A stretch of 49,208 bases of DNA, taken from UHGV virus genome UHGV-0196072; one strand, 5' to 3'. Positions 3,245 through 46,347 of the stretch are shown piece after piece (the first letter of the stretch is position 1; every line of letters starts with the position of its first letter). The stretch is from a virus. The position numbers and the translations under genes are program-made. The notes beneath the pieces are model-generated. The model saw only the letters and a program-made list of their open reading frames with translations, made no database searches and was not told the origin of the DNA.

Positions 3245-3499
3245 TTATTTATCCTGCGGCGGTTGCGTCACATCCCCCCGCCTGAGCGCATCCTCATAGG
3301 CTTTGGTTTGCCGACGTTTGAAATAAAGGTTCGTAAAATAAGTGGCGACGCCGATCACTACACCACTGACAAGCGCAATGAAGTTCCAGTCAAGACTATG
3401 GAACCAGTCATAAACACGCGCCAGGCCAGTACAAATCAGGCCGCCTGACGTGCAGTACGTAGCCGCTGTAAAGATTTTGTCAGGCATGATTTTGTTCAT
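3245..3499 (-). CDS. S: pinholin (S21-like class II holin) with a dual-start motif MNKIM
   Basis: Two TMDs and a C-terminal TNLYFKRRQTKAYEDALRRGD matching S21 (TNLYFKIREDRRKAARGE). Immediately upstream of the SAR endolysin. Confidence 0.8.
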   Translation of the reverse strand: MNKIMPDKIFTAATYCTSGGLICTGLARVYDWFHSLDWNFIALVSGVVIGVATYFTNLYFKRRQTKAYEDALRRGDVTQPPQDK

Positions 3500-3542
3500 C
3501 CGTCACCTCCTGCTGAGGTGTTAACCGTGAGATTAAAAAAAG

Positions 3543-3601
3543 GTGGGTATTATAACCACTAAACTATTGCACGCTTCGATAATGGTGGGTATAATACCCA
3601 C
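3543..3601 (+). promoter_or_regulatory. hicAB promoter with two palindromic operator-like sites
   Basis: First site gtgggtattataaccac at 3543..3559. Second site gtgggtataatacccac at 3585..3601, a perfect 17-bp palindrome containing a TATAAT -10 at 3590..3595. Candidate -35 TTGCAC at 3568..3573 with a 16-bp spacer. GGAGG lies just before the hicA start. Confidence 0.55.
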
Positions 3602-4321: not shown

Positions 4322-5371
4322 TCAGCCAGCCATTTTGCGGATCTCGTCAACAGTTTGCTCGAACCGTTCGCCTTCCAGCTCAACCCCTATGGCATGCCGG
4401 CCAGACTTAATTGCTTCCTTGATAGTTGACCCGGATCCCATAAAGAAATCAGCAACGAGATCACCAGGCTTACTACTGGCATTGATGATCTGCAGGAGCA
4501 TATCTGCGGGTTTTTCGCATGGATGCTTACCGGGATAGAACTGAACCGGCTTATGCGTCCAAACGTCCGTATAGGGAACAAGCGCCGTAACGGCGAATTG
4601 ACGCCGGAGGGATTTGTATTCCTCCAGCAATTCTGAATATTTGCGGTTCAGAGAATGCCAGGTTGCTACTAACTCATGGTGAGGGTGGGCCAGCTCGTTC
4701 TTCTGGTGCTTCTCTGCGGCGATCTTTGAAAATAGCGCCTGCAGTTTTAAATAGTCGCTTTCGTTTGGCAGCTGCCATTGGCTAATGCCGAACCAGTGCG
4801 ACACCATGTTCTTTTTGCCGGTAGCGTCAGCTATCTGCTTAGCACTAACGCCAAGCGAATCTCGAGCATTACGGAAATAAGATATAAGCGGCGCCATCAA
4901 ATGCTGCTTAAGGTCGTTACTTTTTTCCGCATACCCATCATCTTTTGGTTGATACGGTCCCTGATAATGCTCAGCAAACAATATTCGCTCTGTAGCTGGA
5001 AAATAGGACCGTAAACTCTCTTTATTGCAGCCATTCCACCGTCCTGATGGCTTCGCCCAGATGATGTGATTCAGTACGTTAAACCGACTCCGCACTAAAA
5101 TTTCGATATCTGAGGCAAGCCGATGACCAGAGAACAGGTAAAGGCTACCGTTCGGCTTTAAAACACGCCAGAACTGCGCCAGACACATATCAAGCCAACG
5201 TAAATAGTCCTCATCCCCTTTCCATTGGTTGTCCCAACCGTTCGGCTTAACCTTAAAATACGGCGGATCCGTAACTATCAAGTCAATGGAGTTATCAGGG
5301 AGGGACGGAAGATATTGCAGGCAATCAGCGTTGATTAATTCAGCACTGGATATTTTTACAGTATTTTTCAT
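4322..5371 (-). CDS. DNA methyltransferase, beta-class (N6-adenine or N4-cytosine): DPPY motif IV precedes the FxGxG motif I
   Basis: IVTDPPYF near the N-terminus. ADFFMGSGST near the C-terminus. Confidence 0.75.
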   Translation of the reverse strand: MKNTVKISSAELINADCLQYLPSLPDNSIDLIVTDPPYFKVKPNGWDNQWKGDEDYLRWLDMCLAQFWRVLKPNGSLYLFSGHRLASDIEILVRSRFNVLNHIIWAKPSGRWNGCNKESLRSYFPATERILFAEHYQGPYQPKDDGYAEKSNDLKQHLMAPLISYFRNARDSLGVSAKQIADATGKKNMVSHWFGISQWQLPNESDYLKLQALFSKIAAEKHQKNELAHPHHELVATWHSLNRKYSELLEEYKSLRRQFAVTALVPYTDVWTHKPVQFYPGKHPCEKPADMLLQIINASSKPGDLVADFFMGSGSTIKEAIKSGRHAIGVELEGERFEQTVDEIRKMAG

Positions 5372-5520
5372 AGATCAGTAAGCAGGACTCTGATAGGCTC
5401 ACTATGCTTTTGCGCTAAAGCAGTGGGCCTTGGTTCGCTTGTGACCTTCTACATGAGCGAATGGCTGGTCGGGTGCTCCAACACCCACCAGCCGCCCATT
5501 TTCACAGCAGATAGCCCCCA

Positions 5521-5712
5521 TTAAGGGAGGCGCTTGTAACATCCGAATTGATAGTCAGATAAACCCGCCATTACCAGCTGCGTTAAAATTAACTGACAGC
5601 GCTCACGCGTCAGATGCGTGTTTTGCGAAATCTCCCCAACCGTAGCTGGTTCATCACTTAACTCATTGAAAACCGCGCGCGCCACTTCCGTCATATCATA
5701 TTGATTTAGCAT
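5521..5712 (-). CDS. hypothetical protein (63 aa)
   Basis: ORF only. Sits between the Q-like gene and the methylase. Confidence 0.25.
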   Translation of the reverse strand: MLNQYDMTEVARAVFNELSDEPATVGEISQNTHLTRERCQLILTQLVMAGLSDYQFGCYKRLP

Positions 5713-5905
5713 GTCTTTTTCCTGTTCAAACGGTATGACATACAGATAACTCTGGTTGCTAACGTCATCAAGAAGTAATTGCAGAAGGCATAAAAAAACC
5801 CCGCCTAAGCGAGGTTATTTATAAATATGGAAGAATATCAAATTACCCTAAAATATCGCTCATTTTGTTGCATTTTGCAAGCCAGTTTGACGAAGATAGC
5901 CAACT

Positions 5906-6625
5906 TTAATCACATTTTTCAGTTCTGGCCTCTTCTATCTGTTCATGATGGCTGTAGATGTGTTGCAATGCGTTGCTATCCATCTCAACGAAAGCCTTTT
6001 TAAGCCGATCCCAATGACCGGCATACACTCTTTTCCATGTCGAACGATCAACGGAAACCATACGCGCCAGTGCTGCGCCAGCGTAGGCTTTATAAGTCTC
6101 ATTATTCCGTGTCGCGGCAACCTCCTGGGCAGCCAACCAGACCAGCCCCACCAGCTTTTTGATAACTCTCGATTGGATCGCCCTGCCTACCTGATAGTTC
6201 TGGTATTCAGTCCAGATGTGTTGGCACATTATCGTCTGGTACCGAAAGTTAAGGTCGAAGCCATAACAATAGCGCACCCATGCCTGGTGGTGCTCTTCCA
6301 GCAGGTTCACAGCCCGGCGCCACGGTGAATAACCAAACTCGATATCATTGATGGGTGGCATCGGCCGGCGGCGGCTGCGAGTCTCCATCACATGAACAGG
6401 AGTGGTCAGAGCTTTAACTACAGACGGGCCGCAGCCAATCCCCCCTTCAAGATCGACCATGTGGCTGGCGCGCCGTGGATTTTTATTCTTATCTGCTGGT
6501 GGGTTCTCGCTGAATGCCTCGAGTTGTCCCTTTGTTGCGCCGGATAAATCCAACAACGCTCGACGAACTTCAATACGGGTATATTCCAGATTTTGTAGAT
6601 TCATACTGCTCAGTGCTCCATACAC
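5906..6625 (-). CDS. putative late-gene antiterminator (Q-like; QuuQ/YdfT-type; Phage_antitermQ-like). The ATG at 6604 is the alternative start
   Basis: Length about 235 aa. Located downstream of a DUF968 gene, as ydfU-quuQ are in the Qin prophage, and upstream of the lysis genes. Confidence 0.45.
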   Translation of the reverse strand: MYGALSSMNLQNLEYTRIEVRRALLDLSGATKGQLEAFSENPPADKNKNPRRASHMVDLEGGIGCGPSVVKALTTPVHVMETRSRRRPMPPINDIEFGYSPWRRAVNLLEEHHQAWVRYCYGFDLNFRYQTIMCQHIWTEYQNYQVGRAIQSRVIKKLVGLVWLAAQEVAATRNNETYKAYAGAALARMVSVDRSTWKRVYAGHWDRLKKAFVEMDSNALQHIYSHHEQIEEARTEKCD

Positions 6626-7687
6626 TTATGCTTTTACAATCACACCGATCGCTATGGCCCTATCAAGGAAACGGAACAACAGTTGCAGCTGTGAGCCGTT
6701 TTTCTCTTCAAACGCATTTACGTCGGCATGTAGCTCGTCGTGACACTCTCTGCACAGAGGAAACACGAAGAGATCGTGGGCTTTGGTTGCGGTACCGCCC
6801 ATGCCATGCCCGATGACATGATGCGGATCATCTCCGGGGCGACGACAGCACTCGCATGGCTGCCGCTTCACCCAGTCGGTGTAAGTCTGGTTAACCCAAC
6901 GCCGGCGCTTAGGTTTCAGCATGAAGGATTCTGGTGATTCCGGATCGGCGGCCAGCGCCAGCACCTTCGGCTGTTCCTGCTGCGCCTGCGCTCCTTCGTT
7001 GGGCCTGCATGCTTGCGCTGCACCTGATGAGGGGAGTTTTTCCTGCAGAATGCTGGTGGCCGGTACTGAAGGTCGGATATCGCTTTCTTTATATACCGAC
7101 TGGAACGGCTCCTCGGGAAGACGCAGACCTCGCTGTGCCATCGTCTCGGTGATAGCATCGGCGGCGCCGGAGTACACGGCCCACCAGCACAGCTCCGGCA
7201 GTGACAGCTCCCGCTCTCGTCCCAGTTGCAGGCCTGTGATGGCGGTATCAATAACCCAGTCGATAACGTTCCGGCGCGCCAGCGCGGTAAGCGTGCCAGT
7301 GGTCTGTTCTCGAAGGCGGGTGTCGCAGTACCAGCAGAGCATCATCGCACCAGGAGGATGACGCATGGTGACCAGTTCGTGGTGATGGTAATCGGAGTGC
7401 GGGTACTGGCATTCGCGAATGTTGTGCTGAAGCCAGTATTCAAGCCCTGGCAAGCCCCCGGCGGCTTTGATGACACGCTCACTGGTGAAAAAGTCTTCCA
7501 ATACCTTATCTTCAGCCAGCGGCTGGCGCGCGTCAGGAACGGCACCAGCCTCCAGCCCCGCCATACTTTTTGGCTCAGACTCGATTAGCACCCTCCCGTT
7601 GCGGAAAAGCCTCATCAGTTCTTTACCAGGCTTAAACAGTACCACGCCTAAGCGTGGCACCACTTCCGGAGTTAGCAGGGCTCTCAT
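6626..7687 (-). CDS. DUF968 phage protein (YdfU-like) with a C-terminal Cys/His cluster
   Basis: 353 aa. C-terminal CECCRRPGDDPHHV...CRECHDELH. Confidence 0.5.
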   Translation of the reverse strand: MRALLTPEVVPRLGVVLFKPGKELMRLFRNGRVLIESEPKSMAGLEAGAVPDARQPLAEDKVLEDFFTSERVIKAAGGLPGLEYWLQHNIRECQYPHSDYHHHELVTMRHPPGAMMLCWYCDTRLREQTTGTLTALARRNVIDWVIDTAITGLQLGRERELSLPELCWWAVYSGAADAITETMAQRGLRLPEEPFQSVYKESDIRPSVPATSILQEKLPSSGAAQACRPNEGAQAQQEQPKVLALAADPESPESFMLKPKRRRWVNQTYTDWVKRQPCECCRRPGDDPHHVIGHGMGGTATKAHDLFVFPLCRECHDELHADVNAFEEKNGSQLQLLFRFLDRAIAIGVIVKA

Positions 7688-9411
7688 GCGACCTCCCTTT
7701 GGACGTTACACATTTCGGGGAGATTCGCTCTCACTAATGCCTCGGCGAAAGGAGGAGGAACTGCGTTACCGCAGCGTGCCACCTGCTTGTCTTTTGCGTA
7801 ACGGTTGCCACGATAATCGCGATCGATGATGTAACCAGCCGGGAAACCCTGCGCCCGGTATAGCTCATGCGGCTGCAGCATGCGCATACCGATATCCACA
7901 ATCTGATAATCATCACCATCAACGGTAACCAGGCCAAATCGATCGTTGGTTGTCACCGTCCCCAGCGGCTCCGACAGTGAAACTCCGCCCTTTTCGTTGC
8001 CGTAATATTTCATCAGGAAAGCACGGACTTCTCCGAGATGCAGACCGCCAGCCGTGACCGTCGGTACAGGCTGATCCACTTTGCGGCCGTCTTTGCAGGT
8101 ACCGCGAAGATGAACAAGATGCGAGGTCACGACAGCATGGTGATCCGTTGTTGTCACCGTATGGGCTGGCGCGCCCATCGCAGCCCCTGGTCCGGTGTAG
8201 TTCCCGCCAAAGTGCTTCGCCAGAAACGCGGTGACCAGCTGAGATTTCCCACCACCACCAGCGGTGACGGTGCCGTTTGGTTCGTCGGCGCGGTGCCCGG
8301 TGCTGGCGCCAAACTGACGCGCAATGACGGGAGCAACAACGCAGGATCGGGATTCTTTCAGAATGGTGTGTGCTGGCTTACCCATCGGACGGGGTTTAGC
8401 CTGATATTCACTCCCCCCATTACCAGCCAAAAAAGGAGTAACGACGGCGTAACCGTGGGTTTTGGTGATAGTCTGCAGCGGCACGTCGAGTTCCTGACCC
8501 CTAAAACAATCGTACGAGGTCCGGGTGCTGGTGTGGTTGCACTTGACGATAAATGGCGTCGGGTTATTCAGCACAAAACGCTCGATACCGCGCGCAATGC
8601 GTTTAAGCGTGTTCTCCGCCAACGGCTTAGCACGTTCAAAGATGCTCGGACAGGGCAACGACCAGTCAATGCACTCTGCTGCCGTTCGCCATGGCGCCAG
8701 TCTGCCACTCTGCACTTCCAGTGATTTCGGATCCCCATGGGTGGGGGCTGGCCAGCGTACGCTTTCACCGTCGCAGCGCATGACCATAAAGAAGCGTTTG
8801 CGGATTGTCGGCGCCCCGAAGTCGCAAGCGCGCAACTCGCGGTAATCGATGTTGTATCCCAGCCCCTGAATCAAAGACCGAGCTTGCTCGCTATCGGGCT
8901 GAATGGAAAGAAACGCGCACACCTCCGCCAGCGCCGGATGATTAGCATTAATACCAGTCGACAGCATTCCAACAAATGCAGCAAATGTTTCGCCAGTACG
9001 CGCTGGATCCGGGCGCATCTCATCTTCCAGCAGCGGCCCCCAGGTTTTAAATTCCTCGACGTTCTCAAGCATCATGACGCGCGGACGCTTCGCCAGCGCC
9101 CAGCGAATGACTACCCACGCCAGCCCTCGAATCTCTTTTTTTACCGGCTTAGCGCCCTTGGCTTTGGAGAAGTGCCGGCAATCAGGGCTGAACCATGCGA
9201 GACCAACAGGGTTGCCGCCAGTCGCCGCCACAGGATCGACATCAAATACGGACTCGCAGTAATGCAGCGTATCGGGGTGGTTCGTCTTGTGCATGGCAAT
9301 GGCGTTTTCATCATGGTTGATGGCGATGTCAACACTGCGCCCAATCGCCAGCTCAATCCCTGTTGACGCCCCACCGCCACCAGCAAAGTTATCAACGATA
9401 ATTTCACGCAT
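7684..9411 (-). CDS. DNA (cytosine-5)-methyltransferase (the ORF extends to 9450; the internal Met at 9411 is the preferred start)
   Basis: Motif I FAGGGGAS, PC motif FSPDCRHFS, ENV motif MLENVEEF, and a C-terminal GNAV motif. Confidence 0.8.
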   Translation of the reverse strand: MREIIVDNFAGGGGASTGIELAIGRSVDIAINHDENAIAMHKTNHPDTLHYCESVFDVDPVAATGGNPVGLAWFSPDCRHFSKAKGAKPVKKEIRGLAWVVIRWALAKRPRVMMLENVEEFKTWGPLLEDEMRPDPARTGETFAAFVGMLSTGINANHPALAEVCAFLSIQPDSEQARSLIQGLGYNIDYRELRACDFGAPTIRKRFFMVMRCDGESVRWPAPTHGDPKSLEVQSGRLAPWRTAAECIDWSLPCPSIFERAKPLAENTLKRIARGIERFVLNNPTPFIVKCNHTSTRTSYDCFRGQELDVPLQTITKTHGYAVVTPFLAGNGGSEYQAKPRPMGKPAHTILKESRSCVVAPVIARQFGASTGHRADEPNGTVTAGGGGKSQLVTAFLAKHFGGNYTGPGAAMGAPAHTVTTTDHHAVVTSHLVHLRGTCKDGRKVDQPVPTVTAGGLHLGEVRAFLMKYYGNEKGGVSLSEPLGTVTTNDRFGLVTVDGDDYQIVDIGMRMLQPHELYRAQGFPAGYIIDRDYRGNRYAKDKQVARCGNAVPPPFAEALVRANLPEMCNVQREVA

Positions 9412-10294
9412 GGACCGCCCCCTGCATACTGCTGACCAGTCCACCAGCAATGGTTATGATCTCGCTGATTGATGTGCGCTCCAGCCAGAGCTGGTTGATG
9501 TGGGATTTCAGTTTGTTCTGCTGCGACTCCTCCAAATCGGTGGCACCTTCAAGCTGCCCGAATGCCAGATTGACCTCCAGCGGCCATATGCGAGATTCAA
9601 TAACAGGCTCAGCGGCTGGTTTCGCCGCAGGAGGCGGAGCTACATCCCGCGCCGGAGATACCAGCCCAGCTGCGAACTGCGCCAGCGCCATACTTGCACG
9701 CCCTTTTGCTTCCAGCTCCACGCGATCGATATAGCTAAAGTGCTCGCCGCGCCAGGTCTTATCAAATACCGCAATGGCCCCGGCAAAGAAAGCGCTGGTG
9801 GGCTTCTGCTTTTCGTCGGCAGGCACAAACCACGCAGGAAGATCGAATCCAATGCGACCACGAATAAACATGATGTGATCGGCATCTTCCGGCCACCATG
9901 TTTCACTTGTTGCAGACTTCACGAGGTAAATGTAGCGACCGCCCTTTTCACGCTGCTCGGCGGTATAGTTCATGATGTGCGTCATGCCAGTGATGGCTTG
10001 TTTTTCATGGTACTGTGAGCGGCTGTAAGGCGGGTTAGCAAAGGCCGCGCCGCCGAGTTCCACCAGCCGACCAGACCAGTCCTGTGTCAATGCGTTATCT
10101 TCAGCTGTGTACCATGCTGGGCATTTTGCGTTGCTGTCGTCGGCAAACAGGTCCAGCACCAGCGGACCAAACACAGCGTTAATGCCCCAGAACAGCAGAT
10201 CCGGCGTCCGCCATTGATCGCCAACTTCTTTCAAATAATGGGCCTTCTGGTTACGCAATGCGTCTAAGGCCTGGCAATATTGGTTTTTTGTCAC
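9404..10294 (-). CDS. phage Dam-type DNA N6-adenine methyltransferase (GTG start)
   Basis: FANPPYS motif. About 296 aa. The start overlaps the stop of the upstream replication gene (GTGA). Confidence 0.7.
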   Translation of the reverse strand: MTKNQYCQALDALRNQKAHYLKEVGDQWRTPDLLFWGINAVFGPLVLDLFADDSNAKCPAWYTAEDNALTQDWSGRLVELGGAAFANPPYSRSQYHEKQAITGMTHIMNYTAEQREKGGRYIYLVKSATSETWWPEDADHIMFIRGRIGFDLPAWFVPADEKQKPTSAFFAGAIAVFDKTWRGEHFSYIDRVELEAKGRASMALAQFAAGLVSPARDVAPPPAAKPAAEPVIESRIWPLEVNLAFGQLEGATDLEESQQNKLKSHINQLWLERTSISEIITIAGGLVSSMQGAVHA

Positions 10295-11504: not shown

Positions 11505-12137
11505 TTACTTCTCCATACAAGATTTGTCTGCCACGACGCCCGGAGCTGCACACTCGCGGGCGTCACTCTTTTCCGGCGCACAAAACACACGGAAAAGCAG
11601 CGTCAAATGTTCCTGCCACTTAGCCATCACCTGATAGCTGTTCTCTTCGATCTGGGCGCGTTCCTGAGCATCAATAACGCCGTCAGCGGTAGCTTTACGA
11701 ACGTATTGTGAATGCCTGCCGATCCACTCAACTGACTCCATGAGACGCTGGTTGATATCGCCGTTTTCAATCTCTTCAACATCAGCCAATGGCACAAAAA
11801 CACCGTTCGAGTGACGTGCAATAGCGTTCGCTATGTGGTTTGAACCACCAGCACGTTGAAGCACCATCGCCCAACCGAGCGGGAAGATCTGATCGCCATC
11901 GGTACGCAGCCGGTTAAACAGCGCGTTCTCGGTCACACCCAACCACTCAGCAGCTTCTGAATATCCGCCAGGAAGCTCGGTGATCGTTTTTTTGATTGCG
12001 GCCACCAGCCAGGCTGGCTGCTTATCTACTTTCCATTCAGGTTCTATACCCACGGCTAGGTCCTCCCTTCTGTGGTTATTTCTGATCGTTAGTCGTTGTA
12101 TTCTTGCCATAACGTTCTGGGTTGAATTCCAGTTCAC
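11505..12137 (-). CDS. CII-like regulatory protein (phage 186 CII / CP76-type), tentative
   Basis: HTH-like segment (YSEAAEWLGVTENALFNRL). Position directly downstream of cro. Confidence 0.35.
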   Translation of the reverse strand: MNWNSTQNVMARIQRLTIRNNHRREDLAVGIEPEWKVDKQPAWLVAAIKKTITELPGGYSEAAEWLGVTENALFNRLRTDGDQIFPLGWAMVLQRAGGSNHIANAIARHSNGVFVPLADVEEIENGDINQRLMESVEWIGRHSQYVRKATADGVIDAQERAQIEENSYQVMAKWQEHLTLLFRVFCAPEKSDARECAAPGVVADKSCMEK

Positions 12138-12291
12138 CAGCAGTTCGATACGCAGCTTCAGCAGCTCGTCCTTTAGGGATTAAGCGTCCGGGGCGATTAC
12201 GCCACTGGTAAACGGCCTCACTGGTGATGCCAAAAAATTCGGCAACTTTCTCAGTGCTGCCGAAATGTTGTTCAATCTCGTCGGTTGTCAT
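12076..12291 (-). CDS. cro: Cro-like HTH transcriptional regulator (YdaS/Cro family)
   Basis: 71 aa with an HTH (STEKVAEFFGITSEAVYQWR). Divergent from cI across the operator region. GGAGG RBS. Confidence 0.65.
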   Translation of the reverse strand: MTTDEIEQHFGSTEKVAEFFGITSEAVYQWRNRPGRLIPKGRAAEAAYRTAGELEFNPERYGKNTTTNDQK

Positions 12292-12304: not shown

Positions 12305-12367
12305 CTAAGTTTGGTTAGATATTAATAACCAATCTAACTTTGGTCAATAAAAACTAAGATTACTTAG
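12305..12367. promoter_or_regulatory. OR-like immunity region: three 14-bp operators plus the leftward pR
   Basis: Operators at 12305..12318, 12334..12347 and 12354..12367, consensus CTAAGTTnnGTTAG. pR -35 TTGACC (complement of 12342..12347), 17-bp spacer, -10 TAATAT (complement of 12319..12324). The operators overlap the -35 and the transcription start. Confidence 0.6.
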
Positions 12368-12390: not shown

Positions 12391-13017
12391 ATGGAAACGG
12401 TTGGTCAGCGCATTAAAGCCCTACGCAGGGTTACAAAAACCTCTCAAAAAGAACTTGGTAAGTTCTGCGGGGTTAGTGACGTAGCGGTGGGTTATTGGGA
12501 AAAGGATGTGAATATCCCAAACGGAGAATCGCTGGTTAAGCTGGCTAAATTCTTCAATACATCAATAGATTACATTCTTTACGGCACTGAATTTGAAGGT
12601 ACCCTCATAACTAAAATGAGGCGTGTGCCCGTGATTTCCTGGGTTCAAGCTGGGCAGTTTACGGAATGTAAGGCCGCTGATTTATTCAGTGATGTTGATA
12701 AATGGGTTGAAACATCACTACGCATTGGGGATAGCTCGTTCGCTTTAGAGGTCAAAGGGGATTCAATGACCAATCCAAATGGCCTCCCAACAATCCCTGA
12801 AGGGGCAACCGTTATTGTTGATCCAGATGCCGAACCTCTTCATGGCAAGATTGTTGTTGCGCGTATTGATGGCACTAACGAAGCGACTGTTAAAAAACTG
12901 GTCATTGATGGCCCACAAAAATTTTTAGTCCCACTAAATCCTCGCTACCCCAACATCCCGATCAATGGTAACTGCCTCATTATTGGCGTAGTTAAAGGCG
13001 TTCAGTACGAACTCTAA
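12391..13017 (+). CDS. cI: CI-like repressor (HTH_XRE plus S24 LexA-like autopeptidase domain)
   Basis: N-terminal HTH. Ala-Gly cleavage site (VQAGQ). Catalytic Ser (GDSM) and Lys (TVKKL). Confidence 0.85.
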   Translation: METVGQRIKALRRVTKTSQKELGKFCGVSDVAVGYWEKDVNIPNGESLVKLAKFFNTSIDYILYGTEFEGTLITKMRRVPVISWVQAGQFTECKAADLFSDVDKWVETSLRIGDSSFALEVKGDSMTNPNGLPTIPEGATVIVDPDAEPLHGKIVVARIDGTNEATVKKLVIDGPQKFLVPLNPRYPNIPINGNCLIIGVVKGVQYEL

Positions 13018-13047
13018 TCCCTTCCCGCTCTTCCTCTAAGCATCAAG

Positions 13048-13100
13048 CTAAGTTTAGTTTGATGTTTTCACTTGACCAGTAAACTAAGTTAAGTTAGATT
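13048..13100 (+). promoter_or_regulatory. OL/pL-like region: two operators plus a rightward promoter
   Basis: Operators at 13048..13061 and 13084..13097, same consensus as OR. -35 TTGACC at 13072..13077, 17-bp spacer, -10 TAGATT at 13095..13100. Confidence 0.55.
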
Positions 13101-13175
13101 TTTTTCTGTCGACACCAAACCACCGCGCCTGATGTGGTTAAAAGCAGGCCAAAGCAATAAGACGTGATCCCTGTT

Positions 13176-13217
13176 CTGGCTGCTCACTTTCCCCTTGAGG
13201 GTGACAGCCAGCTTTTT
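13176..13217 (+). terminator. intrinsic terminator about 110 nt downstream of the pL-like start
   Basis: GC-rich bulged hairpin ctggctgctcac...gtgacagccag followed by cttttt. Confidence 0.5.
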
Positions 13218-13486
13218 AAGGGCACAACAGGCGAGAGCATTGCTGATTATCGGACTGCGTGAGACGCGACGCGGTAAAGCAGGTAAACAGTGCTCTCACC
13301 GTTGTGGTAATGCGGCTCTGCGCACGTGACGAGGCCAACAAGTTTTTATTTCAACTTTTGAAATGAATACGTTTCTTGTGGTGTAGCGTCGCCGGTTCTG
13401 GCCGGTCCGGCAGGTGGAGGCACCACCGCCACAACTCGAATTGCTGTGTGTAGTCTTTGCCCAGTCTCTTCGATGGGCCCTTTTTT

Positions 13487-13601
13487 TACACAACAGGGAA
13501 GAGCACCACCGGCACCGGGAACTAACCCTGCCCGGATCCGAGTTCAAAGCGTGGACCCTCTCTCCTTCAGGCTCTGAACTGGTGCTCTTCCCTGTTGTGT
13601 A
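13487..13601. repeat. 22-bp perfect inverted repeat (tacacaacagggaagagcacca / tggtgctcttccctgttgtgta) enclosing a 71-bp spacer
   Basis: Arms at 13487..13508 and 13580..13601 are exact reverse complements. Located in the roughly 500-nt non-coding leader between pL and the first early-left gene. Confidence 0.9.
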
Positions 13602-13648
13602 TGAAGAAATTCCCGGCGGTGGCAGCCGCCTTTCGAGATGGTAAAACT

Positions 13649-14020
13649 ATGAGTAATGATCGCATGACAGTAGTGCCCGATTTCCTGGGCGAACTGGACG
13701 CCGGCGTATTCATGAACAAGATTGCGGCGGCTCTAAATACCACCGCGCTCGGCGTTCTGAACAACGGCAACAAAGGCAAGGTTGTCCTCACCTTTGATTT
13801 TGAGCGTATGGGCAACTCTGTTGAAGAGAAGCGCGTCAAGATTAAGCACAAGCTGAACTACAGCACCCCAACTCCCCGCGGCAAAGCGTCGGAGGAGGAC
13901 ACCACCGAAACACCAATGTGGGTTAACAAAGGTGGCAAGCTAACAATCCTGCAGGAGGATCAGGGGCAACTCTTCGGTATCACCGGTACGGTGGACGGAA
14001 AGCTTAAAGCGGATCAGTGA
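13649..14020 (+). CDS. hypothetical early protein (YfdP-like?). The ORF is open from 13595
   Basis: First gene of the pL operon. Not Arg-rich, so not N-like. Confidence 0.35.
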   Translation: MSNDRMTVVPDFLGELDAGVFMNKIAAALNTTALGVLNNGNKGKVVLTFDFERMGNSVEEKRVKIKHKLNYSTPTPRGKASEEDTTETPMWVNKGGKLTILQEDQGQLFGITGTVDGKLKADQ

Positions 14021-16379: not shown

Positions 16380-16589
16380 ATGGCAAAGCTAATGAAAGCG
16401 AGTCTCTGGAGTAAGCGCGAATTTACCAAAGACTCCATTCCTGACAACCGTACAATTAAACGTTGGGTCGAAAACGGATTACTCATGGGAAGGATTGTAG
16501 ATGGTTCAGTTTTTGTCTATGAAACCGAAAAGTGGGGAGTTGACTCAATTGTTAATCAGGCGGTACGTCAGTTAATAATTGAGGGTTGA
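16380..16589 (+). CDS. xis: excisionase (Xis-like)
   Basis: About 70 aa. Resembles lambda Xis (WSKREFTKDSIPDNRTIKRWVENGLL). GGAGAAGG RBS. Immediately upstream of int. The ORF is open from 16296. Confidence 0.6.
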   Translation: MAKLMKASLWSKREFTKDSIPDNRTIKRWVENGLLMGRIVDGSVFVYETEKWGVDSIVNQAVRQLIIEG

Positions 16590-16591
16590 CC

Positions 16592-17779
16592 ATGGCAGCA
16601 AGGCCACGAAAAAAAGAATACCGCCACCTTCCTGATTATCTTTTTTTTGATAAAGATCGTGGCGTGTATAAGTTCACGCTTATAACTGGGAAAAAGAAAA
16701 CTCTCGGTTCGGATCGAGTAATGGCTATCGCCATCGCCCGAGAATATAACCTGAGGATGCGCCCAGAAAATACACCATCGATAGATTCATTAATTCGGGA
16801 ATCGGGAGGGCTGAATGGTGAAGCCCACCCGTTTTCTGAACATGTTGATCGCATTATGGAGAGAGCGATCAAAGATGAGCAGCCGTCTAAAAGCACACTT
16901 GACGATTGGAATAATGATGCCATCAGGGTTAAAGAATTTTTTAATAACATACCCGCATGCGATATTGAGCTTGAGCACGTAAATGCCTACATACGAAATT
17001 ACCATTCTGAATCGTCGGCCAATGTTCAGAACCGAAAAGTTAGCTTCCTGAAAAAGTTATTTTCTTATGCTGTTGATGAATCGCTAATGATGGATAACCC
17101 TGCAACACGGAAAAAAATGCGGCGTGTCGATAAAAAGGTCCGCCGGCGACTTACTTTGGAACAGTTCCTGGCCATACATGCAGCTGCTGAACCTTGGCTG
17201 AAGACTGCAATGGACCTTGCCATACAAACTACGCAAGCGCGCCTGGAAGTTTCCCGGATCCGGTACTCGATCAAGGAACCTCAAGAAGGGGTTTGCGGCT
17301 GTGTATGGTTCGATCAGGAGGAGGCTGGCATATTCGGAACGCTTTACATTCACCGGCAAAAAGTGCAGCACAAAGAGGCTTCACACGTCGCTATTCCGAT
17401 CGGCAGGGCCCTGAAAGAGATCATCGACAACAGCAGAGACAATGTGGCCAGTCCTTATGTTGTTCACCGGCTTCTGGAAAAGAGAAGCAATCCGATAAGC
17501 AAGGAAGTTAACCACCCAACACAGGTGGCCCCTGATTATTTGAGCAGGGCATTTTCAGAGCTGCGGGACCGGATAGGTGTAGCGGCAGAATTACCTATCA
17601 AAGAAAGGCCAACTTTCCACGAGATTAGAGCGCTGGCGGCTCATATTTTCGAAAGACAAGGTATCGATCCGCAGGCAAGGATGGCCCATAGTGATGCAAA
17701 ATCGACAAAAATTTATACCCAGAACCATGTGGAATGGGTAGAAGTTCCTCATGCTGAAATTGTCTTTAAAGCCGGGTGA
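16592..17779 (+). CDS. int: tyrosine integrase (lambda Int family)
   Basis: N-terminal arm-binding domain (RPRKKEYRHLPDYLFFDKDRGVY). C-terminal catalytic HEIR...H..Y region. GAGGG RBS. Adjacent to attP. Confidence 0.9.
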   Translation: MAARPRKKEYRHLPDYLFFDKDRGVYKFTLITGKKKTLGSDRVMAIAIAREYNLRMRPENTPSIDSLIRESGGLNGEAHPFSEHVDRIMERAIKDEQPSKSTLDDWNNDAIRVKEFFNNIPACDIELEHVNAYIRNYHSESSANVQNRKVSFLKKLFSYAVDESLMMDNPATRKKMRRVDKKVRRRLTLEQFLAIHAAAEPWLKTAMDLAIQTTQARLEVSRIRYSIKEPQEGVCGCVWFDQEEAGIFGTLYIHRQKVQHKEASHVAIPIGRALKEIIDNSRDNVASPYVVHRLLEKRSNPISKEVNHPTQVAPDYLSRAFSELRDRIGVAAELPIKERPTFHEIRALAAHIFERQGIDPQARMAHSDAKSTKIYTQNHVEWVEVPHAEIVFKAG

Positions 17780-44777: not shown

Positions 44778-46347
44778 GTTTATCCTCCTCTGTCTTGCGA
44801 CTGTCCTGAATTTGTTGTTGATACGTGGACGCTATCCAGACCGGACTCGACAACCCGGCCAGCCTGCGCTCTTCGGACTCTCTGACCTGCTGGCGGAAAA
44901 TCTCCTGGTAATCTTCCCCCATGATGGCCAGTTCTTTTTCATACGTGCTCAGGCCTGCTTCAATACGCATGACCGACTCCTGCACCTCTTTCAGTCCGTC
45001 AATGGCCATACGCCCGGCACCAATCCATTCCGCACGGCACCAGCTTGAGCGCGCCTCCCAGAAAGAAAAACGTGTACGCGGTGCGCGAATGATGCCCCGC
45101 GCCAGCGCCTCTTCCAGCCAGCAGGCAAACATCTGTGTGGCCATCCGCCCGGCAATGAATTTACGGCGCCCAAGAAAATACCGCCACGACTCGTTGGCAG
45201 ATGCGCGGGCGCTGGAATAGCTGACCTGCGAATAATCTCGCGACAGCTGTTCGTAGGACACGCCCAGCCCTGCGGCGATATAGCGAAGCAGCGCCTGCTC
45301 CAGCGCGGAAAATCCGTTATCAGAATCCTGCGCGGTCTGCAGGTTAAGCTCATCGCCCGGGTACAGATGAGGAATTTTCACACCACCCAGTTTGATATTA
45401 TTTGCCTGATAGTAACGGGAATACTGAGACAGCATCTTCATCAGCGGGCCGTTGTCCCCATCCGCCGCGGCGATGTATTCAAACGCCTTTTCCGAATCCA
45501 GTTCACTCTCAATGGTGGCCGCGTACATCGCTTTAACGATGGCAGACTGCAGCTGTGTCGCCTGCAGAGTGTCCAGCATTTTTAGCCTTTCCATCACGCT
45601 GAAGAACTGGTTGGCCCCACGGGTCTGTCCGTCCTCCACCGGTTCAAACACGTGGATCATGGCCGGCCTGCCCGAGGGAAGAGTTTTAGGTACCCGCGTC
45701 CAGCGCCCGGTGCCGGAAAAAGGCCATGTATCTTCACTGACGTGATAGGCCAGCGCTTTCCCGTTTTTATCGATTTCCACGCCGGCCCTGAGCTGGCGGT
45801 TACCCTGAGCGTGACCTGGTGTGTCAATGCGTTTCGGGCTGATGGCTTTAAAACGGGTACGGAACAATTGCGTGGTTTCAGCATCCCAGACAGGCTGGAC
45901 GAACACTTCACCGTTGAAAGCATGAACACCCACCCCTTCCCGGATAAACTCAGTAAAAGTGCGCTTTCCTTCAATGTCTATTTCACCAAAAACCGAATCA
46001 CAGTATTCGGTCCAGGCACATTCCACTTCATCCACAAAGCTTTTTGCCGCGGCTTCCCGCATCCCGAGATACCGCCAGTTCGGGCGGTAACTGATGAGGA
46101 AAAGGTGACCGACGATATGATCCTTGTGCAGGGCAACGGCATTCGCCGCAATACCATTGTTACGAACCAGATCGTCGGCACGCGCGTTACCCAGTCTCAG
46201 TGACGGAAGTAACGCCGCATCCACGCTTTCAGCGGGGGGGACCCAGTCCGCCATTTGCCCGCCAAACCCGACACCCCCTCCGCTGTAACTCAGGCTTTCC
46301 CGTAGAGGAGCGCCGTGCACATCAACCAGCACAGGTGATCGCTTCAC
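44767..46347 (-). CDS. B: portal protein B
   Basis: 526 aa, highly similar to lambda gpB along its length. Confidence 0.95.

Follow-up and report, generated by a model that had tools for sequence, protein, structure and literature searches.

A predicted chain of conserved structured RNA modules in the early-left leader of a lambdoid phage

Modular layout of the leader

The virus genome UHGV-0196072, a stretch of 49,208 nucleotides (nt) that is called the window here, contains a lambdoid immunity region in which 630 bases lie between the stop codon of a CI-like repressor gene and the first gene of the early-left operon. Alignment of this leader to phages LLS, Eeyore and Flotzy and to E. coli prophages revealed nearly invariant blocks separated by stretches that evolve fast yet are always self-complementary. 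On this comparative evidence the leader is a chain of conserved structured RNA modules, in keeping with the initial annotation, which had called it highly structured. The modules follow one another in the order M1a, M1b, hairpin A, core, tail, hairpin B and a small GGCGGUGGCAGCCGCC hairpin, ahead of a first gene of the YfdP family (Table 1). We read this chain as an array of small-RNA cassettes heading the early-left operon, an interpretation drawn from sequence to which we assign a probability of roughly 0.55.

Among the relatives, modules are present, absent or added as whole units, and the joints are hairpins with a CACAAC..GUUGUG base. In a Nissle 1917 prophage, M1 is followed directly by a hairpin-B-type element and then by rdgC, and in some other relatives the core leads straight into the YfdP start region. 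A prophage of a mussel-isolate E. coli (locus L003, ~3250-3600) has an extra cassette of ~330 nt between two CACAAC hairpins; nothing in Rfam matches this cassette, which may be a further non-coding RNA. A scan of the entire window at the Rfam gathering thresholds returned nothing, and below those thresholds RprA was the sole match of value. The second terminator, the RprA-like module, the STnc100-related domain, the first CACAAC hairpin and the hairpin family shared with lambda had all been overlooked in the initial annotation.

Table 1. Positions of the leader modules, flanking genes and related elements (window coordinates unless a locus is named).
Feature	Position	Strand	Remarks
pL-like promoter	13072..13100	+	TTGACC-17-TAGATT; TTGACC 13072-13077, TAGATT 13095-13100
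OL-like operator repeats	13045-13068, 13081-13104	+	flank or overlap the pL-like promoter
24-nt operator-like repeat, four copies	12302, 12351, 13045, 13081		two at the divergent pR/pRM region
M1	13107..13217	+	hairpin motif, then terminator with covarying stem
M1a hairpin	13119..13150	+	ACCAC..GUGGU; portable motif, invariant in relatives
M1b terminator	13176..13217	+	bulged G+C-rich stem 13176..13211, then CUUUUU 13212-13217
Hairpin A	13223..13306	+	~20-bp stem, CACAAC..GUUGUG base, one bulged A, 45-nt interior
Core	13301..13435	+	135 nt; helices P1-P5 round a junction, plus pseudoknot
RprA-like tail	13437..13488	+	single-stranded AUUGCUGUGUGUAGUCUUU 13440-13458, stem 13459-13478, CC, U7 13481-13487
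Second terminator	13459..13487	+	overlooked in the initial annotation
Hairpin B	13487..13601	+	the inverted repeat flagged initially; 22-bp stem, 71-nt interior with two smaller hairpins
Small hairpin GGCGGUGGCAGCCGCC	13615..13630	+	predicted in the fold; just 5' of the YfdP ribosome-binding region
First early-left gene, YfdP family	13649..14020	+	123 amino acids; phrog_204, E = 3.6e-41
CI-like repressor	12391..13017	+	phrog_4
Cro-like gene	12076..12291	-	
Q-like protein	5906..6625	-	phrog_304, E = 3.9e-72
Integrase	16586..17779		
Core paralogues of P1-like plasmids	L010 23-147, 1203-1318; L043 1912-2011, 3833-3957, 4651-4766		

The leader is predicted to be transcribed from a pL-like promoter that matches the consensus at 9 of 12 positions, a call that rests on context because matches of the promoter scan in this region are no commoner than chance. 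That context consists of the operator-like repeats and of a mirror-image promoter (12347..12319) that points toward the cro-like gene, and it bears out the promoter with two operators described earlier. Transcription is predicted to start near 13107, and the plus-strand scan found no further promoter-like site from pL to the first gene. As had also been noted, a Q-like late antiterminator is encoded and N is missing: Pfam and PHROGs scans of all early-left open reading frames (ORFs) and of the leader ORFs returned no arginine-rich N-like protein, and the first gene, which has no Pfam match, is itself not N-like.

A core related to STnc100 and a tail resembling RprA

RNAalifold gave five helices for the core. 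A covariance model, R1, built from 19 non-redundant members of the core family with no STnc100 sequence included, scores the window copy at 124 bits and finds 84 copies in 73 loci, three diverged paralogues per P1-like plasmid among them. Covariation was counted on 77 distinct homologue rows in an alignment that, as a caveat, was itself fitted to the model; 99.2% of its cells are paired and compensatory change is seen in 21 of 27 pairs, a result reached by 0 of 500 shuffles, and pairing falls to 27-56% when the 3' partners are shifted by 1-3 columns. Helix P1 occurs as GUUGUGG/CCACAAC, GUUGCGG/CCGCAAC and GUGUGGUG/CACCACAC, while P5 varies through GGUGG, GGGGG, CCUGG and CCGGG around an invariant AGGCA loop. 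The pseudoknot, between UGGCC of the P4 loop and the GGCCA that comes right after the 5' strand of P3, covaries as well (UGGCC:GGCCA, UGGCU:AGCCA, UGGUC:GACCA, UGCC:GGCA, UACC:GGUA and UUAACUG:CAGUUAA), its mean longest helix being 4.8 base pairs (bp) as against 3.0 bp with shuffled loops. G-U pairs in P1, P2 and P3 are compatible with the plus strand only. By these measures the core is a genuine complex structured RNA.

The core is also widespread. Its 3' 21-mer is found exactly in more than 118 IMG/VR contigs, which represent 84 distinct variants, and copies occur in Klebsiella Lastavirus, in T1-like phages, in P1-like E. coli plasmids and in genomes of Kluyvera, Enterobacter, Klebsiella, Raoultella, Buttiauxella, Silvania and Pseudescherichia, with a diverged form in Aeromonadaceae. 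On the P1-like plasmids the three paralogues lie among transfer RNA (tRNA) genes, beside a TerB-family gene and a Tad2 anti-defence gene. In the Klebsiella phage SopranoGao (L008, 1424-1507) the core and a CACAAC hairpin are followed by a tRNA-like unit (Rfam tRNA, 29.7 bits) that has 17 extra anticodon-loop bases and the same GUUGUGG/CACAAC acceptor-like stem, and then by a third long hairpin. No second copy was found in the window, including the vicinity of the Q-like gene, by a pattern search allowing up to 3 mismatches or by the covariance model. Some distant matches were set aside: one in Roseovarius (19.9 bits) was judged spurious, lying inside an apparent coding sequence, and the cores in Chryseobacterium (L135) and in a Geobacteraceae metagenome-assembled genome (L139, with the same score as the window core) are near-identical or identical to enterobacterial copies and probably reflect contamination or misbinning.

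The core can be joined to the STnc100 family because covariance models match reciprocally and transitively through intermediates. The Rfam STnc100 model (RF02076; gathering score 47 bits) has no match at E <= 10 on 12900-13800 of the window; the same model matches a paralogue from a P1-like plasmid at 42.4 bits, below 47, with the same helices; and locus L113 has a second copy that is a genuine STnc100 by its Rfam score (79.4 bits), to which R1 gives 44.6 bits (E = 5.5e-9). The shared architecture spans model positions 31-147, and all helices covary in the joint alignment. STnc100 and PasD, the latter discovered by Hfq RIL-seq, which ligates and sequences interacting RNAs, are small RNAs of prophages and are believed to have a common ancestor (bioRxiv 10.64898/2026.05.13.724894; PMC8550237). 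PasD lies within 10 kb of Q in more than 98% of hits (bioRxiv 10.64898/2026.05.13.724894), and STnc100 copies lie near Q or, in one copy, downstream of stx2 (bioRxiv 10.64898/2026.05.13.724894; PMC12370729). The window core resembles these RNAs in its five helices, the invariant GGAGGCACC P5 hairpin, a bulged A in the P2 hairpin and the partner strand of the pseudoknot, as well as in the general plan, a body with a variable, terminator-bearing tail behind it, and in being found on phages or prophages. In contrast, the sequences of P1 and P2 differ from those of STnc100, a CACAAC hairpin stands upstream, the tail is RprA-like, and the setting is a pL leader instead of the neighborhood of Q, a late operon or stx. 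The chain of model matches indicates that the window core is a diverged branch of the STnc100/PasD superfamily in a new place, the pL leader.

RprA is a core enterobacterial Hfq-dependent small RNA, and its 3' part is said, in work of Papenfort et al. 2015, to activate ricI in Salmonella. The segment 13437..13490 shares 87% identity over 54 nt with annotated rprA in essentially all E. coli genomes (blastn), and the Rfam RprA model (RF00034) scores 46.9 bits (E = 1.5e-4), under its gathering score of 70. Common to both RNAs is a 3'-terminal stretch of ~57 nt (ACAAC..AAUUGCUGUGUGUAGUCUUUGCCCA..UGGGC with the U tract behind it), which covers the most conserved block of the Rfam consensus together with the terminator. 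The 5' half of RprA has no significant similarity to the core, as 36% of shuffles score as high, and it is in this half, outside the shared part, that the characterized RprA seed lies (nt 31-50; PMC5861431). The tail differs further from RprA in the two C residues between stem and U tract and in being driven by a phage early promoter, whereas RprA is found at the chromosomal ydiK-ydiL locus.

Conservation of the tail centers on its single-stranded part. The GCUGUGUGUAG block is exact in 53 of 82 distinct tails of related loci, 34 of them with an RprA-type stem and 17 with an unrelated GGCGG..CCGCC stem; because it is conserved across two unrelated terminator stems, the single-stranded block itself appears to be under selection. 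The Aeromonad, P1-like and Lastavirus copies lack the block. A search of the phage genome found no target for the seed within 3 mismatches, which makes host targets more likely. The literature searched yielded no account of a phage that carries the best-conserved part of RprA.

M1 and the CACAAC..GUUGUG hairpins

M1, with which the array opens, is itself partly shared with lambda. The 33-nt M1a motif has a 94% match in the lambda pL operon between sieB and orf28/ral (L146, 1201-1233) and occurs in HK620, VT1-Sakai and P22-like phages; its loop GCCUG could possibly pair with a downstream CAGGC to form a small pseudoknot. Whether counted from pL or from the cI stop codon, M1b is the first intrinsic terminator reached. 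Its fold (-23 kcal/mol, z = -3.05) and a compensatory stem change in the Nissle-type relative, from CUGGCUG/CAGCCAG to CUGGCGG/CCGCCAG, bear out the terminator proposed here initially. A simple terminator scan missed this terminator and the second one because of their bulges and loop size. M1 was found in 175 of 5426 E. coli genomes, nearly full length in 44, and since the 13217 terminator is the first downstream of cI, in lysogens M1 may also arise as the 3' end of the repressor transcript.

In both hairpin A and hairpin B, CACAAC opens the element within 1-6 nt of the U tract of a terminator, and GUUGUG closes it. Hairpin A (-38.5 kcal/mol, z = -5.54) has arms that covary among relatives, GAGAGCA/UGCUCUC in some and AAGCGCAC/GUGCGCUU in others, and T1-like, Lastavirus, P1-like and Aeromonas copies of the core have it too. 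Its 3' arm and P1 of the core share one GUUGUG. Hairpin B corresponds to the perfect 22-bp inverted repeat with a 71-nt spacer that had been reported earlier, correctly, since the arms (13487-13508 and 13580-13601) are complementary at 22 of 22 positions. Folded as RNA it reaches -66 kcal/mol (z = -8.95), which 0 of 200 shuffles equalled. The alignment of its family keeps 17 outer pairs, 5 of them through compensatory change, along with a conserved inner hairpin, CCGGG..GGG..CCC..CCCGG; where the window stem is perfect, most members have two mismatches. The median number of outer pairs is 18-19 in the two hairpin families, and together with the perfect 22 bp of hairpin B this agrees with the ~20 bp or more of almost unbroken double-stranded RNA expected of an RNase III processing hairpin, a role that is predicted.

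The same family is represented in lambda, where a CACAAC..GUUGUG hairpin (44787..44862; L147, 11788-11863) lies 7 nt after tR', under the predicted orf-64; tR' is the terminator of the lambda late-leader 6S RNA. Lambdoid, T1-like and Klebsiella phages carry this lambda-type hairpin with 90-97% identity, each time as a single copy per genome. The literature searched yielded no paper containing the sequence of the lambda post-tR' hairpin or the hairpin and core sequences of the window.

Hairpin interiors keep one orientation relative to transcription. A flipped interior in L078 (9400-9661), considered as a sign of an invertible DNA switch, proved to be an assembly artefact, the end of the contig folding back on itself around the inverted repeat. 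A resemblance of the 3' arms to boxA (UGCUCUU..) was likewise set aside, many variants (GUGCGCUUCC) not fitting and the site being buried in a stable stem. Some hairpin-A interiors (L025, L031 and L083) contain hairpins similar to tRNA T arms, CTGGTTCGATTCCAG and GTCCGTTCGATTCGGAC.

The right arm of hairpin B had been described as overlapping the first ATG of the operon, a claim that probably does not hold. The annotated starts of YfdP homologues correspond to 13649; in the stretch 13601-13649 between the two ATGs, insertions and deletions are not multiples of three, and the upstream ATG of LLS is out of frame. The ATG at 13601 under the right arm is, by this comparison, probably not the start codon. 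The GGCGGUGGCAGCCGCC hairpin that follows is invariant in the leader alignment and is kept in relatives that lack the tail and hairpin B.

A possible small-RNA array and its alternatives

From the structures, conservation, covariation and homologies described above we infer how the leader might be transcribed, terminated and processed, and how its RNAs might engage Hfq and their targets. Once CI repression is lifted, transcripts from pL would end first at 13217 and release an RNA of ~110 nt, M1, as the initial annotation had plausibly suggested. Polymerases that read through would make hairpin A and the pseudoknotted STnc100-type domain and end at the RprA-like terminator at 13487. The resulting RNA would expose AUUGCUGUGUGUAGUCUUU, the same block as in the 3' half of host RprA, single-stranded between scaffold and terminator, with a 3' end that resembles an Hfq-binding module; whole, or cleaved next to the scaffold, it would probably base-pair with host messenger RNAs (mRNAs) with the specificity of the RprA 3' domain. 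The CACAAC..GUUGUG hairpins would act at the RNA level as spacers that part each terminator-ended RNA from the next, and their ~20 bp of double-stranded RNA makes RNase III processing or insulation a likely role. Only polymerases passing both terminators would reach the YfdP operon; with 1-2 non-U bases between stem and U tract, both terminators are taken to be leaky in efficiency.

A precedent for this arrangement is PreS (LPR1) of lambda, an Hfq-dependent small RNA that ends at tL2a in the early-left operon (bioRxiv 10.1101/2024.10.31.621285). In both phages small RNAs made by intrinsic terminators would be placed in lambdoid early or late operons, with Hfq binding in the case of lambda (same source), and the tail terminator shares the features of the PreS type, namely a G+C-rich hairpin, a long U tail, a conserved single-stranded stretch and an early operon. 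Lambda further resembles the window in the hairpin of the same family within 7 nt of tR'. Compared by eye, neither M1 nor M2 is similar to PreS in sequence, and lambda has N where the window phage encodes no N-like protein.

Several observations weigh against the array. Two serial terminators without a known antiterminator leave expression of the operon unexplained. Because GUUGUG is shared, hairpin A and P1 are predicted to be mutually exclusive in their full form, and the minimum-energy fold of the whole leader forms hairpin A while the core misfolds. Throughout the main family the upstream CACAAC, the shared GUUGUG and the 3' strand of P1 do not vary. Neither the numbers of G-U and A-C pairings in the arms (43 versus 38 for hairpin A, 48 versus 22 for hairpin B) nor the hairpin fold energies of plus and minus strand clearly separate constraint on RNA from constraint on DNA. 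The Rfam models for RprA and STnc100 both stay under their gathering scores on the window copy, and a target specificity shared with RprA is uncertain because the main RprA seed lies outside the shared part.

The near strand symmetry of the arm statistics would also suit hairpins that act on DNA, as cruciform or single-strand-hairpin junctions or recombination sites where phages would trade RNA cassettes, with pairing maintained for this purpose instead of RNA processing. The hairpins are exactly where cassettes come and go, as in the extra cassette of the mussel isolate, the L054-type deletion and the joining of M1 to hairpin B in Nissle; the base hexamers are invariant while the remaining arms covary; and the lambda-type hairpin is nearly identical in unrelated phage families. 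We nevertheless consider DNA junctions unlikely, as no recombinase is associated with them, the motif read from the sequence misfits integron attC cores (RYYYAAC / GTTRRRY), the hairpins always occupy the transcribed strand just after a terminator, interior orientation is fixed with the fold-back as its lone exception, and ordinary homologous recombination would be expected to leave mosaic joints at conserved sequence. The view that the inverted repeat is a miniature inverted-repeat transposable element (MITE)-like insertion, proposed initially, or a functionless chance palindrome is largely refuted and keeps hardly any probability. It could draw on a perfect 22-bp stem being unusual for RNA elements and on the two stem mismatches of most relatives; set against it, a search for other copies of the repeat found a median of one place per E. 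coli genome with any match, each phage record has one place, and the window has two such hairpins only, with different interiors. This single-copy occurrence, the covarying arms and the fixed interior orientation argue that the repeat is neither a MITE nor a palindrome formed by chance, and the compensatory change in five outer pairs, the conserved interior, the constant post-terminator position and the z score of the fold point the same way.

Other explanations assign the RNA a different role. The core or M1a could be a cis-acting processive antiterminator, like put of phage HK022, that carries polymerase past the leader terminators without N. Two terminators do precede an operon in a phage with no N-like protein, a complex conserved fold heads early operons in several phage types, and in the relative L137 the core directly follows a pL-like promoter; HK022 put is likewise a structured RNA just after pL in a lambdoid phage without an N antiterminator. 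HK022, however, has two copies, putL and putR, after pL and after pR, each of two adjacent stem-loops (~70 nt), whereas the window has a single, much larger and different fold with a terminator upstream of it and none downstream of pR. A covariance-model search of HK022 gave nothing above noise, and blastn-short of the whole leader gave only chance 10-15-mers. The put-like element put forward initially is for these reasons not supported, and a cis-acting antiterminator role appears quite unlikely, considering also that M1a is present in lambda, which uses N, that the three paralogues of P1-like plasmids beside tRNA genes are not in a leader, and that the related STnc100 and PasD act as free small RNAs bound by Hfq (bioRxiv 10.64898/2026.05.13.724894). 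Those same tRNA genes lend some color to a tRNA-like handle or decoy, in which P1 and P5 would mimic acceptor and T arm and serve RNase P-type cutting at P1 or titration of a host factor. The topology is that of a cloverleaf with a long extra arm, in which the 8-bp P1 abuts the 5-bp P5; the acceptor-like stem recurs in the next unit of SopranoGao; some interiors of hairpin A hold hairpins that resemble T arms; and RNase P matures the c4 RNA of P1. The likeness is purely topological: ARAGORN finds no tRNA in the window, the Rfam tRNA model has no match, the P5 loop has 5 nt (AGGCA) and is not a T loop, and there is no CCA or discriminator context, all of which makes a tRNA-like role very unlikely.

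To return to the small-RNA array, a broader and more tentative proposal is that phages carry a portable scaffold-plus-seed small-RNA system, in which a pseudoknotted and tRNA-like STnc100-type scaffold acquired or donated the RprA 3' module and the CACAAC/GUUGUG hairpins are joints where cassettes are processed and shuffled. If this were so, an induced phage would speak to host mRNAs with the voice of RprA, and cassettes would be shuffled across the lambdoid, T1-like, Lastavirus and P1-like families; the scaffold, to judge from its complex and conserved fold, would have a role that goes further than base pairing. Two points appear to be new with respect to the literature searched, namely the RprA-like module and how widely the STnc100-type fold occurs and how complex it is. 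The poorly understood STnc100/PasD group would be widened to several phage families, to Aeromonads and to P1-like plasmids with three paralogues, and the pseudoknotted fold is unusually complex for a base-pairing small RNA. The tail is the first apparent phage copy of the RprA 3' module; it presents a testable case of mimicry of a core host regulator and a lead on the origin of the RprA 3' domain. Lambdoid early-left leaders without N, comparable in this respect to the PreS region of lambda, could be small-RNA cassette arrays, and the conserved hairpin after tR' represents an uncharacterized element of lambda. An experimental system exists in phage LLS, which grows on E. coli K-12.

The remaining genes around the leader are those of a lambdoid phage. 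A CII-like gene lies, as does the Cro-like gene, on the minus strand, and 3' of the leader come genes of the YfdP, YfdQ and HD-hydrolase families, followed by an exonuclease gene. Because tail genes come after the integrase, the window looks like a whole phage genome. A large HNH endonuclease gene (6626-7687, phrog_96) adjoins the Q-like gene, and the region 4322-10294 holds three DNA methyltransferase-like ORFs (4322-5371, 7684-9450 and 9404-10294), the first two of which were assigned from their translations only.

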